From an uncultured Gammaproteobacteria bacterium (GTDB lineage: Bacteria; Patescibacteriota; Patescibacteriia; UBA2591; UBA6264): a stretch of DNA of 12,722 nt. Position numbers and translations under genes: made by a program. Shown here piece after piece: positions 5,917-8,904 of the stretch; positions within the stretch are counted from its first letter, which is position 1, and the number at the start of each line of letters is the position of its first letter. The notes beneath the pieces are model-generated. The model searched no databases and had not been told where the DNA came from. It saw only the letters and a program-made list of their open reading frames with translations. The stretch spans positions 17,424 through 30,145 of the forward strand of contig CAZDOL010000003.1 of assembly GCA_964507075.1 (NCBI GenBank), in the 5' to 3' direction.

Positions 5917-6843
5917 TTAAAATAATTTAGTTTGTTTTTTTTCTGCAGTTAAAGTGCTTAATTTTTTGGCCAAACTTTTAAATCCTAGTTTTTCAAAATT
6001 TTTTAAAGCTTTTTCTGTATTTGTTTTTAAAACCCGACAATTTTGTAGTACTGATATATTTATTCCAGGAGCTTTGTCTTGTATGGTTACTAGCATTTTA
6101 TTTAGGATAATTTTTTTCTTGTTTTTTATAAGATTTTGTGTTAAAGATTCTTTTATTAAATTTTCTGGTTGACTATGGGAGGGCTTTTCTAAATATTGGT
6201 AAACATTTTCTATGTTTCCGAATTTTTTAATTAATCCTGATGCTGTCTTGAGTCCTACTTTCATTAAACCAGAAATATTATCTGAGGGGTCGCCAACTAA
6301 GGCCTTAAGGTCAATTATTTGTTCGGGTGAAACACCAAAACGCTCAAAAACCTCCGAGGAATTATAAATTTTATTTTGTTTTAATCCTTGTTGTAGAAAA
6401 TAAACCTCTGTCCGAGCATCTACTAATTGCAATAAATCTAAATCGCCAGTGATGATTCTGGCGCTCAGGTTATTGATTTCTTTTTTTGTATTATTTAGAG
6501 CCCCTATCAAATCGTCAGCTTCTAACCCATCTTGACTAAATGATTTTATGTCAAAACTTTCTAAAACCGATTTTGCCCAAGGAATTTGTTTGTAAAATTC
6601 AAGTGGTTGAGAAACTCTATTGGCTTTATATTCTTTATATTCTTTATGTCGAAAGGTTGGTGCTTTGGTGTCAAACGCAACTGCCAAATAGTCTGGCTTA
6701 TCTTTATATAATATTCTTAAAAGAAGAGAAGTGAAACCATAAACTGCGTTAATTGTTTGTCCTTTGAAATTTTTTAGCTTAGGAAGGGCGTGCCAAGCGC
6801 GATGAAGGACAGCAGAAGCGTCAATGATAATAAATTTTTCCAT
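5917..6843 (-). CDS. Stand-alone 5'-3' exonuclease / flap endonuclease (Pol I N-terminal domain homologue, no polymerase domain)
   Basis: IIDASAVLHRAWHAL, GQTINAVYGF, AVAFDTKAPTFRHKEYKEYKANR, EADDLIGAL, TGDLDLLQLV and LVGDPSDNISG are the conserved 5'-nuclease and H3TH motifs. The ORF ends at 308 aa. Confidence 0.85.
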   Translation of the reverse strand: MEKFIIIDASAVLHRAWHALPKLKNFKGQTINAVYGFTSLLLRILYKDKPDYLAVAFDTKAPTFRHKEYKEYKANRVSQPLEFYKQIPWAKSVLESFDIKSFSQDGLEADDLIGALNNTKKEINNLSARIITGDLDLLQLVDARTEVYFLQQGLKQNKIYNSSEVFERFGVSPEQIIDLKALVGDPSDNISGLMKVGLKTASGLIKKFGNIENVYQYLEKPSHSQPENLIKESLTQNLIKNKKKIILNKMLVTIQDKAPGINISVLQNCRVLKTNTEKALKNFEKLGFKSLAKKLSTLTAEKKQTKLF

Positions 6844-6864
6844 ATGGTTTTAAAAAATTGGAAG

Positions 6865-6937
6865 AGGCCAGGACGGGAGTCGAACCCGTGTATATCGGTT
6901 TTGCAAACCGACGCCTTAGCCACTTGGCTACCTGGCC
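6865..6937 (-). tRNA. tRNA-Cys (anticodon GCA), 73 nt, no encoded CCA
   Basis: Minus-strand read: GGCCAGG-TA-GCCAAGTGGCTAAGGCG-TCGGT-TTGCAAA-ACCGA-TATAC-ACGGG-TTCGACT-CCCGT-CCTGGCC-T. It has a 7-bp acceptor, 5-bp anticodon and T stems, anticodon GCA and discriminator U73 typical of tRNA-Cys. The 3' flank is CTTCC. Confidence 0.9.
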
Positions 6938-6998
6938 CTATTTTAAGCTTGCTTTATTTTTACTTTAGCAAAAAAATGTCTTTTTGTCCATGAGAGTC

Positions 6999-7021
6999 AC
7001 TTGGGAGTCCGACTCCCAAGT
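6999..7021. repeat. Hairpin palindrome copy 1 (ACTTGGGAGT-CCG-ACTCCCAAGT), 10 nt downstream of the HUH gene stop
   Basis: Perfect 10-bp stem with a 3-nt loop. Left flank is gaGTCAC. Confidence 0.9.
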
Positions 7022-7031
7022 AGGAATTACT

Positions 7032-7739
7032 CTAATATTCTAATAAAAGTTTTTTAATTTGTTTATTTTCTTTTATTTCTTTTAAAGAATCTTTGGTAAA
7101 TCCTTTGTAATCCTCTATGTTGCCAAATTGATCTAATATAATATCCTTTTCACAAAAATCCTTTTTATTTTTATTGTCATTGTCCTCAACATATTCTTCC
7201 CAGCTTGATTTAATTAACTTGGGAGTCCGACTCCCAAGTAAATTATAATCATGGACCTTGTAATTTAAATTAATATAGGCGCTTAGGTGCAATAAATACT
7301 CATTAGAATCTATATGGATTGCTTTATATTTTCCTTGACACAATGACCCGCTTCGTTTGTATTTCTCATTAAAATAATTCGTATATCCTGTTCCTATCTT
7401 GTGCATGAATTTTGGAATTCCGTCGTCAACTAATTGTTGTAAAAGAAAATGGTAATGATTTGGATTTAAGCAATAACAAACAAAATTAACCAATTTGTCT
7501 TTTTTTAACTTGAAAGTTGTTGATTTGGGAGTCCGACTCCCAAGTGATGTTTTTTCTTTAATATTTATCCTTGTAAAAGAATTTTCGTAGATACTGCCTA
7601 TTGGGTCAATGATATTAAATTCATCCATGCTTTGGAAAAATCGTCTTAAGTCGTTTTTGTTTTTAAAAATAATTCGTTTGTCTACTCCACGATTGTAGAT
7701 GTGATAATATTCTTCATTAATAAATGTAGGATTTTTCAT
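7032..7739 (-). CDS. HUH/Y1 single-strand DNA transposase-like protein (IS200/IS605 TnpA-related, REP-associated tyrosine transposase-like)
   Basis: 235 aa. The N-terminal YHIYNRGVDKRIIF matches the family's first strand. The HUH motif is NPNHYHFLLQ (HYH at 7449-7457). It also has GSLCQGKYKAIHIDSNEYLLHLSAYINLNY (compare RxGxLWQxRF...YLLxxxRYIhxNP, with the catalytic Tyr in YINLN). Assignment is from motif memory, not an HMM run. Confidence 0.72.
   Translation of the reverse strand: MKNPTFINEEYYHIYNRGVDKRIIFKNKNDLRRFFQSMDEFNIIDPIGSIYENSFTRINIKEKTSLGSRTPKSTTFKLKKDKLVNFVCYCLNPNHYHFLLQQLVDDGIPKFMHKIGTGYTNYFNEKYKRSGSLCQGKYKAIHIDSNEYLLHLSAYINLNYKVHDYNLLGSRTPKLIKSSWEEYVEDNDNKNKKDFCEKDIILDQFGNIEDYKGFTKDSLKEIKENKQIKKLLLEY
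7217..7239. repeat. Hairpin palindrome copy 2, inside the HUH ORF (codons 168-174, LGSRTPK)
   Basis: ACTTGGGAGTCCGACTCCCAAGT, a perfect 10-bp stem. The minus-strand reading ctt ggg agt cgg act ccc aag is in the gene's frame. Confidence 0.9.
7523..7545. repeat. Hairpin palindrome copy 3, inside the HUH ORF (codons 66-72, LGSRTPK)
   Basis: ATTTGGGAGTCCGACTCCCAAGT with one stem mismatch (T7524/G7544). It shares the extra right flank GTGATGTT with copy 4. Confidence 0.9.
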
Positions 7740-7755
7740 ATATTATATTTTATTT

Positions 7756-7778
7756 ACTTGGGAGTCCGACTCCCAAGT
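7756..7778. repeat. Hairpin palindrome copy 4, 17 nt upstream of the HUH gene start
   Basis: ACTTGGGAGTCCGACTCCCAAGT followed by GATGTT. The stem can extend to about 12 bp with one T/G pair. Confidence 0.9.
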
Positions 7779-7829
7779 GATGTTCCTATTGTAGCAGAAG
7801 AATAAGTATTTGTAAAAAATTGAAATTTT

Positions 7830-7850
7830 TTTGGAAGTCCGACTCCCAAA
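7830..7850. repeat. Hairpin palindrome copy 5 (degenerate), between the queA stop and copy 4
   Basis: TTTGGAAGTCCGACTCCCAAA with one mismatch (A7835/C7845). On a minus-strand transcript this becomes a G-U wobble. Confidence 0.75.
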
Positions 7851-7887
7851 CTTTTCTCTTTAAACAATTGGGTCCTAAATTTTTGTT

Positions 7888-8904
7888 TTACATGATGAGC
7901 ATGGCGTCGCCAAAGGAATAAAAGCGATACTTCTTCTTTATGGCTTCGGCATAAGCTTGTAAAATAAATTCTCTTCCAGCAAAAGCTGAAACAAGCATTA
8001 GTAATGTTGATTTTGGGAGATGAAAATTAGTAATTAGCCCGTCAATGAATTTAAATTTATATCCAGGATAGATAAAGGTTTGAATTGATTTAGCTCCAGT
8101 TTTTAGGATATGATTATGAGAAGAAAATGCCTCTAAAACCCGACAAGAGGTAGTGCCCACGGCTATTATATTTTTTATTTCTTTTTTAGCTTTGTTTAAT
8201 TGTTGAGCGATTGGCCTTTTTATTTCTCCCCACTCAGAATGCATTTGGTGATTTTCAATGTTTTCGGTTCTTACTGGCTGAAAAGTACCAAATCCAACAT
8301 GTAAGGTGACAAAATGCATATCTATTCCAATTGTTTTTAATTTTTGGATGATTTTTTTTGTAAAATGAAAGCCGGCAGTGGGCGCAGCAGATGACCCAGG
8401 CTGTTGCGCATAGATGGTTTGATATTCATGCAGATTAGATTTTCTTTTAATATAGGGGGGCGTAGGAGTTTCTCCCGCTTTTTTTAATTCTTTTTGCAAA
8501 CCTCCTTGAGGAGCGATGAATTTTATCGCCCAAGTTTGCTCTGATAGTTGTTTCTCAAGAATTCCGAACAACTTTTCATTAAAATGAATTCTTAAATTTA
8601 ATTTTCCCTTCCCTTTTAATATTATCTCCCAGCAATCATTTTTTAGTTGTTTTAGTAATAAAATTTCAGCCTTGCCTTTAGTTGGTTTTTTTCCGTTCAA
8701 GCGCGCGGGAATTACTTTAGAATTATTAGCCACCAAAACAGAGTTTGGTTTTATATATTTGTTTATATTATAAAAATAGTCATGAGTTATGCTTTTTTCT
8801 TTTCGATTTAAAATCATTAGCCTCGAACAATCTCGAGGCCTTATTGGTTTTTGCGCTATTAAATTTATTGGCAAATAATAATTAAATTTTTTTAAACTTA
8901 ACAT
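7888..8904 (-). CDS. queA: S-adenosylmethionine:tRNA ribosyltransferase-isomerase (queuosine biosynthesis)
   Basis: FNYYLPINLIAQKPIRPRDCSRLMIL is the N-terminal signature. PTPPYIKR, AAPTAGFHFT, VTLHVGFGTFQPV, AVGTTSCRVLE and FYSFGDAMLI match conserved QueA blocks. Confidence 0.95.
   Translation of the reverse strand: MLSLKKFNYYLPINLIAQKPIRPRDCSRLMILNRKEKSITHDYFYNINKYIKPNSVLVANNSKVIPARLNGKKPTKGKAEILLLKQLKNDCWEIILKGKGKLNLRIHFNEKLFGILEKQLSEQTWAIKFIAPQGGLQKELKKAGETPTPPYIKRKSNLHEYQTIYAQQPGSSAAPTAGFHFTKKIIQKLKTIGIDMHFVTLHVGFGTFQPVRTENIENHQMHSEWGEIKRPIAQQLNKAKKEIKNIIAVGTTSCRVLEAFSSHNHILKTGAKSIQTFIYPGYKFKFIDGLITNFHLPKSTLLMLVSAFAGREFILQAYAEAIKKKYRFYSFGDAMLIM

Follow-up and report, generated by a model that had tools for sequence, protein, structure and literature searches.

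The question raised by this locus is why a gene for an apparent single-strand DNA transposase should carry, within its own coding sequence, two copies of the short palindrome that also stands before and after it. The locus lies in a stretch of 12,722 nucleotides of contig CAZDOL010000003.1 (assembly GCA_964507075.1, positions 17,424 to 30,145 of the forward strand) from an uncultured bacterium of the Patescibacteriota; this whole stretch is referred to here as the window. The protein encoded by the gene resembles the RAYT enzymes (REP-associated tyrosine transposases), the partners of repetitive extragenic palindromes (REPs). The reading favoured here, to which we give a little better than an even chance, is that the in-frame palindromes are resident REP-like hairpins of the gene's own RAYT-type enzyme, kept uniform by a copy-and-replace process limited to the hairpin, and that the copy in the promoter provides feedback on the gene. 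The gene and the five palindrome copies found on the minus strand of 6900-8000, which share one common orientation, are as follows.

7032..7739, minus strand: open reading frame (ORF) of 235 aa, HUH/Y1 single-strand DNA transposase-like enzyme of RAYT type, assigned by Pfam Y1_Tnp and by fold
7757..7777, minus strand: upstream copy (U), exact; ends 18 nt before the ATG; its 5' arm contains the predicted -35 element
7524..7544, minus strand: first coding copy (I1), residues 66-72, LGSRTPK, one base off; in a linker of variable length
7218..7238, minus strand: second coding copy (I2), residues 168-174, LGSRTPK, exact
7000..7020, minus strand: downstream copy (D), exact; begins 11 nt past the stop codon
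7830..7850, minus strand: fifth, degenerate copy, TTTGGGAGTCGGACTTCCAAA; three changes; -4.7 kcal/mol

The 21-nt palindrome, CTTGGGAGTCGGACTCCCAAG on the minus strand, is exact at 7000-7020, 7218-7238 and 7757-7777. The copy at 7524-7544 departs from it by one change, the last G to A, which turns AAG into AAA, keeps the lysine and breaks the outermost pair. No matches to the palindrome copies were obtained in 200 dinucleotide-preserving shuffles. As single-stranded DNA (ssDNA) the perfect copies form a 10-bp stem with a 3-nt loop at -9.7 to -10 kcal/mol (z about -5.4 to -6.2). An earlier note on this DNA, made from the letters alone, had claimed that two copies are read in frame as LGSRTPK within an uninterrupted ORF, and this is confirmed: both coding copies encode the heptapeptide, at residues 66-72 and 168-174, and the frame is open throughout. 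The distance given there between the two starts, 306 nt or 102 codons in the same frame, is also correct, as is the remark that the copies bracket the catalytic core, since H95-Y-H97 and Y155 lie between them. The degenerate copy at 7830-7850 stands 37 nt after the queA stop, with a T-A outermost pair instead of C-G and one G.T mismatch, and is an older or diverging copy. A flank, GTGATGTT/AACATCA (7 nt), is found 5' of both the 7524 and the 7757 copies on the minus strand. The sharing of this flank, from which the earlier note had argued for duplication or insertion, is real in the window (U and I1) but is no feature of the family, a 5' run of at least 4 nt being common to U and I1 in only one of 47 loci, which is the window itself.

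Partial copies occur beside the full hairpins. In the window, at 6988-7010 after the D copy, GACTCCCAAGT is followed by a decayed GACTCTCATGG, a tandem duplicate of a single arm. Single hairpin arms are tandemly duplicated beside many full hairpins of related loci, downstream of D in L102, L106, L108, L092 and L054 and upstream of U or D copies in L029, L032, L033 and L034; in L102 the arm ACCGCCAAGTG is present three times in tandem. Such duplicates may have been left by DNA breakage and joining, or by slippage at the foot of the hairpin.

The nature of the enzyme was established by profile, motif and fold, its two motifs being placed as follows.

7449..7457, minus strand: HUH motif, H95-Y96-H97; H95 and H97 invariant in 120 sequences
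7251..7277, minus strand: catalytic helix, Y155-x3-N159-x3-H163; Y155, N159 and H163 invariant

A profile search matched residues 76-157 to Pfam Y1_Tnp (PF01797) with 28.8 bits against a cutoff of 23 (E 1.5e-6). This match begins only at residue 76, corresponding to profile position 33, which bears out the impression recorded earlier that the segment between YHIYNRG and the HUH motif is a long one. Homologues are numerous: 4855 were found by word index, and an exhaustive search of representatives of clusters at 50% identity returned 202 clusters at E <= 1e-30, a number that rises to 2729 at E <= 1e-10. Few of the homologues are named, and almost all of those come from Patescibacteria. The residues H95, H97, Y155, N159 and H163 are invariant in 120 relatives, and the motifs are invariant in a separate alignment of 37 sequences as well. 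The same Y-x3-N-x3-H spacing is seen in Y115/N119/H123 of Escherichia coli TnpAREP, in which these residues complete the metal site (PMC3479197). An AlphaFold2 model built from 120 sequences (mean predicted local distance difference test score, pLDDT, 75; predicted template modelling score 0.77) superseded one built from 37, which at a pLDDT of 55 was too weak. The top match of this model in the PDB by Foldseek was 4er8_A, the E. coli RAYT with a REP hairpin (E 4.4e-4, probability 1.00, target TM 0.63), with the TnpA proteins of IS608 and ISDra2 ranking below it. PDB searches by sequence, with the protein or with a family profile, gave nothing useful, and relatives were found there only by comparison of folds. 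As modelled, the enzyme has the fold and the active-site residues of a hairpin-binding single-strand nuclease/ligase, and it is RAYT-like but of a distant lineage, outside the curated RAYT equivalog. An identical protein is present on 17 contigs, including contig ASNW01000003.1 of GCA_000405165.1.

The arrangement of palindromes is shared by the relatives of this gene. Eighty metagenome loci with 47-61% identity to the window protein were fetched; redundant and unusable loci were dropped and the window and three genome loci added, giving 80 non-redundant loci that were scored at the DNA level. A site was scored as a palindrome where at least 8 of 9 stem pairs were formed, and on this basis four sites recur.

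U, upstream, commonest start -36 from the ATG: 67 of 80 loci
I1, at about nt +170 to +195: 54 of 80 loci
I2, at about nt +440 to +500: 49 of 80 loci, always in frame 0
D, commonest start 3-4 nt past the stop codon: 60 of 80 loci

Across these loci the I1 and I2 copies stand in frame 0 in 102 of 103 cases. The hairpins follow the consensus A-CTTGG-NNNN-NNN-NNNN-CCAAG-T, with a unit of 21-23 nt, and the A at -1 and the T at +1 are present in 83-94% of copies at all four sites. At the protein level the palindromes appear as matched pairs of heptapeptides that differ from protein to protein; an alignment of 37 sequences includes LRSSASQ/LRSSASQ, FSGSATE/FSGSATE, LGHSMSK/LGHSMSK and LGGEASK/LGGEASK. 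Such pairs are those that a palindrome encodes, L going with K or Q, F with K or E, and G with P, S, A or T. A heptapeptide repeated at both sites with at least 6 of 7 residues in common was found in 80 of the 120 nearest relatives, as against none of 120 shuffles, and in 14 of 125 more distant cluster representatives, where the arms are sometimes quite different (for example CKGPTFA and KFQHSVL). Judged from these sequences, the four-hairpin layout is an old and conserved trait of the family, much broader than the earlier note reported. In one locus (L034; protein P0002) the I1 and I2 sites hold two different perfect palindromes, CTTAGGTGC... and TTTGGTGGC..., read as LGNRVPK and FGGSATK; it looks as if two hairpin families exist in this one genome, each able to fill a site.

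Within a locus the hairpins are alike, while between genomes they diverge. The locus set contains 40 distinct perfect stems. The I1 and I2 stems of the same locus are identical in 15 of 30 cases and no more than 2 nt apart in 28 of 30, and the U and D stems agree fully in 40 of 53; between loci, I1 and I2 coincide in only 16 of 870 comparisons and differ at 5.8 positions on average. Among 96 distinct coding copies, two-sided changes were seen at 10 of 12 pairs, amounting to 224 cells as against 70 +/- 11 in shuffles. Pairing was retained in 91% of cells in the structure and in 25-47% in slid controls, in an alignment pre-selected for at least 7 of 9 pairs, so that the paired percentage is inflated and the count of two-sided changes is not. 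Close relatives give the same picture in detail. Between L045/L049 and L062 (76-77% protein identity) one compensated base pair has been switched at all four sites, and between L039 and L046 (81% identity, same neighbours) two base pairs have been switched jointly at U, I1 and I2. This uniformity within loci and divergence between genomes is best described, on the sequences at hand, as concerted evolution with compensatory changes.

The unit that is kept uniform appears to be small. Beyond +/-2 nt, the sequences around the different sites of one locus generally show no relation to each other, the U/I1 pair of the window being among very few exceptions, and this indicates that homogenisation acts on the hairpin alone. 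When copies of one locus are compared, a flipped loop is about as frequent as an unflipped one. In L037, whose palindrome is imperfect, orientation can be read: U matches the reverse complement of I1 and I2 exactly, which shows that whole units invert. Further exceptions to the rule on flanks, as occasional fresh events, are found in two loci. In L093 the D copy (641) and a copy in the neighbouring rsmA gene (1109 nt after the ATG) have in common 4 nt of 5' flank and about 12 nt of 3' flank, and both are read as LGGSASKWEKE, which suggests that the hairpin was copied locally into rsmA. In L055 the I1 copy, which is the sole out-of-frame case and lies in a long linker, shares with D a 17-nt 3' flank that includes a second 3' arm. 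A regularity was also noted in the two pairs adjacent to the loop (alignment columns 11-12 and 16-17), where the 5' arm always has R8 and Y9 and the closing pair is 5'-Y...R-3', never reversed. This pattern might equally reflect the stability of the triloop or recognition by the protein.

The two coding copies fall in variable parts of the protein. The only long segments of the model with pLDDT below 50 are 61-78 and 167-172, and these hold the two peptides. The idea in the earlier note that the copies sit in permissive segments is thus supported by the structure prediction, which puts both peptides in variable, low-confidence linkers flanking the catalytic core. The I1 linker (PIGSIYEN to KLVNF) is variable, with a median of 24 aa in proteins with the palindrome and 20.5 aa in those without it (p = 7e-5), and several palindrome-free relatives have a shorter I1 linker. 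At I2 the shortest forms, such as VHQ-LGHSMSK-SSW, are equal in length to their palindrome-free relatives, such as VHG-INSLLYK-SSW and VHK-IKNKMIK-SSW. The constant I2 length suggests that the position is ancestral and that the palindrome decays where its renewal stops. From these comparisons both positions are probably old, with only the sequence at each being renewed. The self-insertion envisaged earlier, taken as a recent event particular to this genome, is not supported, because relatives with as little as 47% identity have a palindrome at the same positions and in the same frame, and the I2 length does not change. The alignment of orthologues that had been proposed as a check gave a divided answer: distant orthologues have the positions in common with the window, but each genome fills them with its own palindrome, and peptide and nucleotides differ accordingly.

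The stem codons in frame 0 are CTT/TTT, GGN/AGN, NRY, the loop, RYN, NCC/NCT and AAG/AAA, and given the R8/Y9 and closing-pair pattern no stop can arise in the stem, so that only the loop codon can be a stop. Among 102 coding copies there are 29 in which inversion of the loop would create a stop. Four loci (L051, L058, L083 and L098) have an in-frame D copy whose loop, TAA or TGA, terminates the gene, so that the protein ends with the first three codons of the hairpin (LGS*); the coding copies of the same four loci have the flipped loop (TTA or TCA).

The upstream copy stands where a promoter would be expected, and in the window the predicted elements are these.

7776-7771, minus strand: predicted -35, TTGGGA, in the 5' arm of U; 18-nt spacer to the -10
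7747..7752, minus strand: predicted -10, TAAAAT, ending 7 nt before the ATG

A TGnTAnnnT motif follows the U copy in 50 of 67 loci and adjoins it directly in 31, and the gap from the end of the -10 motif to the ATG is 6-9 nt in most loci. In the modal geometry of the family the arm provides cTTGGnn at -35, with a 17-nt spacer; this geometry would place the start of transcription at or next to the ATG and would make the mRNA leaderless. As U is the best-kept copy and yet would lie outside such a transcript, a role in DNA is indicated if the promoter has been read correctly. The sense-strand mismatches of imperfect coding copies comprise 14 G.T and 16 A.C, and as G.T is no commoner than A.C there is no sign of selection for RNA pairing. 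A scan of 6800-8000 against Rfam returned only tRNA-Cys. D copies were considered as intrinsic terminators and rejected, the T run not being consistent. The suggestion that cis hairpins allow the protein to regulate itself therefore stands in part: a cis role is plausible since U overlaps the predicted promoter, but a hairpin in mRNA is disfavoured by the probable position of U outside the transcript, by the 14 against 16 mismatches and by the occurrence of both orientations.

Copies also occur away from the enzyme gene. Within the window none was found beyond the surroundings of the gene, but the exact 21-mer of the window is present in 24 stretches of GTDB genomes from several lineages of Patescibacteria, and one genome of Candidatus Yonathbacteria has at least 11 exact copies on 8 contigs. 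Eight of the 14 perfect dispersed copies in the metagenome loci lie inside long ORFs, as do several of the GTDB copies, in more than one frame and on either strand. Ten copy-bearing ORFs were identified and all are Pfam-matched housekeeping genes: DnaG, a PMT_2 glycosyltransferase, YchF, Fmt, RsmA (twice), ApbE, TsaD, PheT and ArgRS. The search of other genes for in-frame palindromes that the earlier note had recommended is thereby answered in the affirmative for related genomes, in which all ten of these ORFs are found, none being in the window. On four PFQT01 contigs of Candidatus Yonathbacteria (L004 at 6187, L010 at 5783, L017 at 7804 and L018 at 3645) the exact 21-mer forms the tip of a longer, site-specific perfect palindrome, in which the flanks are self-complementary for a further 9-30 bp that differ from site to site. 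These resemble the long palindromes of the form a-palindrome-a^c that have been ascribed to the activity of REPINs (REP doublets forming hairpins) in Pseudomonas (PMC3337134).

The inheritance of the gene was examined from its neighbours. In 8 of 14 close pairs with usable flanks the neighbours are conserved on at least one side, and in the pair L100/L107 the neighbour is 97% identical and the enzyme 90%. By these comparisons the mode of inheritance resembles that of RAYTs, which are single-locus, vertically inherited and fast-evolving (PMC2817692, PMC5581495), more nearly than that of an actively moving insertion sequence. On four further contigs with the identical protein (three from metagenome samples, one from an NCBI assembly) the gene and its flanks are identical, with no flips or deletions. 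Two observations concern the surroundings. In one sample the queA gene has a variant in which 45 nt are replaced in frame by an unrelated 75 nt (window about 8069-8112, minus strand, compared with L026 9597-9672); the 75-nt stretch holds a G+C-rich quasi-palindrome, CCCCCACGACCAATCTGGTGTGGGGG, and adds 10 codons, while the rest of the contig is about 99.9-100% identical. A longer contig extending upstream of the region of the window (L025, 1-902) carries a DnaB helicase gene with an intein that has a LAGLIDADG endonuclease domain, according to precomputed Pfam matches.

The layout consists of one hairpin in the predicted promoter, covering the -35 and the spacer, one in each flexible linker beside the catalytic core and one after the stop codon. 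In the favoured reading the encoded enzyme would be the most plausible agent of their upkeep, nicking and rejoining ssDNA at the feet of hairpins. It would recognise the conserved foot on ssDNA and replace hairpins at existing sites, occasionally placing one at a new site. That the copies of one genome, scattered ones in other genes included, are alike in either orientation while the inner stem and loop differ between genomes argues for copy-and-replace confined to the 21-23-nt hairpin. By binding its sites, chiefly the promoter copy, the enzyme would lower transcription of its own gene in a negative feedback, the two coding copies being auxiliary sites or merely tolerated and the L-G-x-x-x-x-K reading a tolerated by-product in disordered linkers. 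A more specific version, which we put forward tentatively and regard as possible rather than probable, is an in-place cassette exchange in which the enzyme cuts both feet of a 21-23-nt ssDNA hairpin and swaps in another copy in either orientation. Such an exchange would rewrite fixed addresses, namely the enzyme's own promoter, its own coding sequence and essential genes, with length and frame unchanged.

Several findings weigh against this account. The protein scores only 20.8 bits against the NCBIfam RAYT equivalog NF047646, for which the cutoff is 80, and the binding, cleavage and strand transfer that it would perform are inferred by analogy with E. coli TnpAREP and IS608 TnpA. The hairpins have no GTAG tetranucleotide beside them, the flanks giving only A at -1, T at +1 and a partial CA/TG. 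Outside the gene the locus-specific hairpin is infrequent, with 17 copies in 545 kb of flanks of related loci or about one per 32 kb. I1 or I2 is missing or decayed in about one third of loci in which the catalytic motifs are kept, which shows that the coding copies are dispensable and that any function they have is non-essential. The leaderless or nearly leaderless mRNA is, like its promoter and start, a prediction from consensus. The pre-selection of the covariation alignment has been mentioned, and a duplex palindrome read by a symmetric dimer would give two-sided changes equally, so that the covariation is no proof of a hairpin.

This last point leads to the main rival, which is duplex recognition by a symmetric dimer. 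Here the palindromes would be operators for a dimeric repressor, whether the window protein or another, with a site at the promoter and auxiliary sites within the gene, and they would be alike through selection without any copying of DNA. The exact placing of U on the -35 and spacer in most loci would be accounted for, as would the spacing of four sites about 200-300 bp apart and the immateriality of orientation, and intragenic auxiliary operators exist elsewhere (lac O2 and gal OI are generally known). Against it, the 4 bp nearest the centre vary freely between genomes and are nonetheless self-complementary in every copy, which a dimer that does not read them would not enforce, and identical multi-base switches at three or four sites between close relatives would be hard to reach by point mutation and selection. 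Also against it are the scattering of the same hairpins in unrelated housekeeping genes and a protein whose fold and active-site residues are those of a nuclease acting on single-strand hairpins, and the half-hairpin duplications and the copies with extra flank point to DNA breakage and joining; we consider this explanation unlikely. Recurrent insertion at hot spots, in which fresh copies would enter two permissive linkers as older ones are lost and the positions would not be ancestral, is in our estimation distinctly unlikely. The I1 of L055, with its other frame, long linker and 17-nt flank in common with D, does resemble a fresh insertion, I1 is absent in some relatives with shorter linkers, and I1 and U of the window share their 7-nt flank. 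Such sharing of flanks is rare, however, and frame 0 is used in 102 of 103 cases although the other two frames are also open. Palindrome-free I2 sites moreover retain the same linker length and a residual x-x-x-x-x-S/Y-K pattern, and where a copy is missing, the rest of the linker contains no trace of one.

The hairpins might also act in mRNA on translational pausing, stability or processing; I1, I2 and D are co-transcribed with the gene, and REPs in 3' untranslated regions are reported in the literature to stabilise E. coli mRNA. This is very unlikely to be their main role, given that the best-kept copy, U, is in the predicted promoter upstream of a leaderless start, that mismatches compatible with G.U pairing on the sense strand are not in excess (14 G.T and 16 A.C), that copies occur in both orientations and on both strands of other genes, and that an Rfam match is absent. 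The earlier note had also raised the possibility of a built-in switch, in which recombination or excision by the enzyme between the coding copies would remove 306 bp (102 codons) in frame and inactivate the enzyme, leaving the junction AAAACATCA-CTTGGGAGTCGGACTCCCAAG-TTAATTAAATC (AACATCA-hairpin-TTAATTAAATC). The copies are direct repeats in the same frame, the distance from I1 to I2 is always a multiple of 3 with both in frame 0, and enzymes of the IS608 type are known to excise DNA between two hairpins (PMC3479197). No such variant was found in the four further contigs with the identical protein, all of which are intact, a weak test as they were retrieved by the intact protein, or in 270 listed relatives, where short entries look like fragments. 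As the deletion would be irreversible and many relatives hold only a single coding copy, we regard a switch of this kind as extremely unlikely.

The closest described systems are those of REPs and RAYTs, such as E. coli TnpAREP (YafM) with its REPs and bacterial interspersed mosaic elements (PMC2817692, PMC3479197, PMC5581495). Common to both are an HUH/Y1 enzyme with the Y-x3-N-x3-H helix, of which 4er8 is the top structural match here, and a gene flanked by palindromic hairpins that are also dispersed in the genome and co-evolve with it. As in those systems, the gene appears to keep to a single locus, syntenic among most close relatives, and it evolves somewhat faster than its neighbour (here in L100/L107). 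The present system differs in that the hairpin is also found twice in the enzyme's own ORF at conserved positions and once in its core promoter, and in that the hairpins are perfect palindromes of 9-12 bp that have a 3-nt loop and lack a GTAG head. Copies are few in the flanks examined, and the dispersed ones looked at mostly lie within genes instead of between them; an N-terminal insert and a C-terminal domain make the protein about 70 aa longer, and it falls below the NCBIfam RAYT cutoff and belongs to Patescibacteria. Insertion sequences of the IS200/IS605 family (IS200, IS608, ISDra2) share the Y1 fold and the HUH/Tyr chemistry (assigned here by fold and motif), hairpins close to both ends of a unit that measures about 0.7-0.8 kb and contains one tnpA-like gene, and a left hairpin region that overlaps expression signals. 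Here, in contrast, the end hairpins are the same perfect palindrome instead of distinct imperfect left and right ends, extra copies lie in the ORF, and neighbours are kept in close relatives, where nothing suggests active hopping. Conservation of the flanks ends at +/-2 nt, and neither a conserved guide nor a conserved target tetranucleotide was detected.

In-frame palindromes in functional housekeeping genes, adding a short peptide in tolerated regions, are known from the Rickettsia palindromic elements (RPE) and intragenic REPs (PMC3733652). RPE-1 measures about 100-150 bp, whereas the unit described here has 21-23 nt (7 codons), is tied to a cognate enzyme gene that itself bears the element at fixed positions and is homogenised in each genome. 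Auxiliary operators such as lac O2 in lacZ and gal OI in galE offer a functional analogy, having a palindrome at the promoter and copies in the transcribed or coding region, but these are duplex sites for dedicated repressors, immobile, not homogenised and absent from unrelated genes, and in the present case regulation is only predicted. The searchable literature, the coverage of which is incomplete, yielded no account of a RAYT ORF that contains REPs or of a RAYT from Patescibacteria. The placing of a cognate hairpin at two conserved positions of the ORF, its integration into the core promoter and its mainly intragenic life in Patescibacteria appear to be undescribed.

These findings address how REP-type hairpins and RAYT enzymes stay matched, and what RAYTs do. 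An exchange of cassettes in place, if it occurs, would be a DNA transaction apart from transposition and would explain how populations of REP-like sequences and their enzyme remain suited to each other. The hundreds of natural variants in which all copies have been switched together allow this co-evolution to be read directly from sequence. For the gene-dense Patescibacteria, a palindromic element of 7 codons living mainly in essential genes matters for the annotation and the protein alignments of a large uncultured group.

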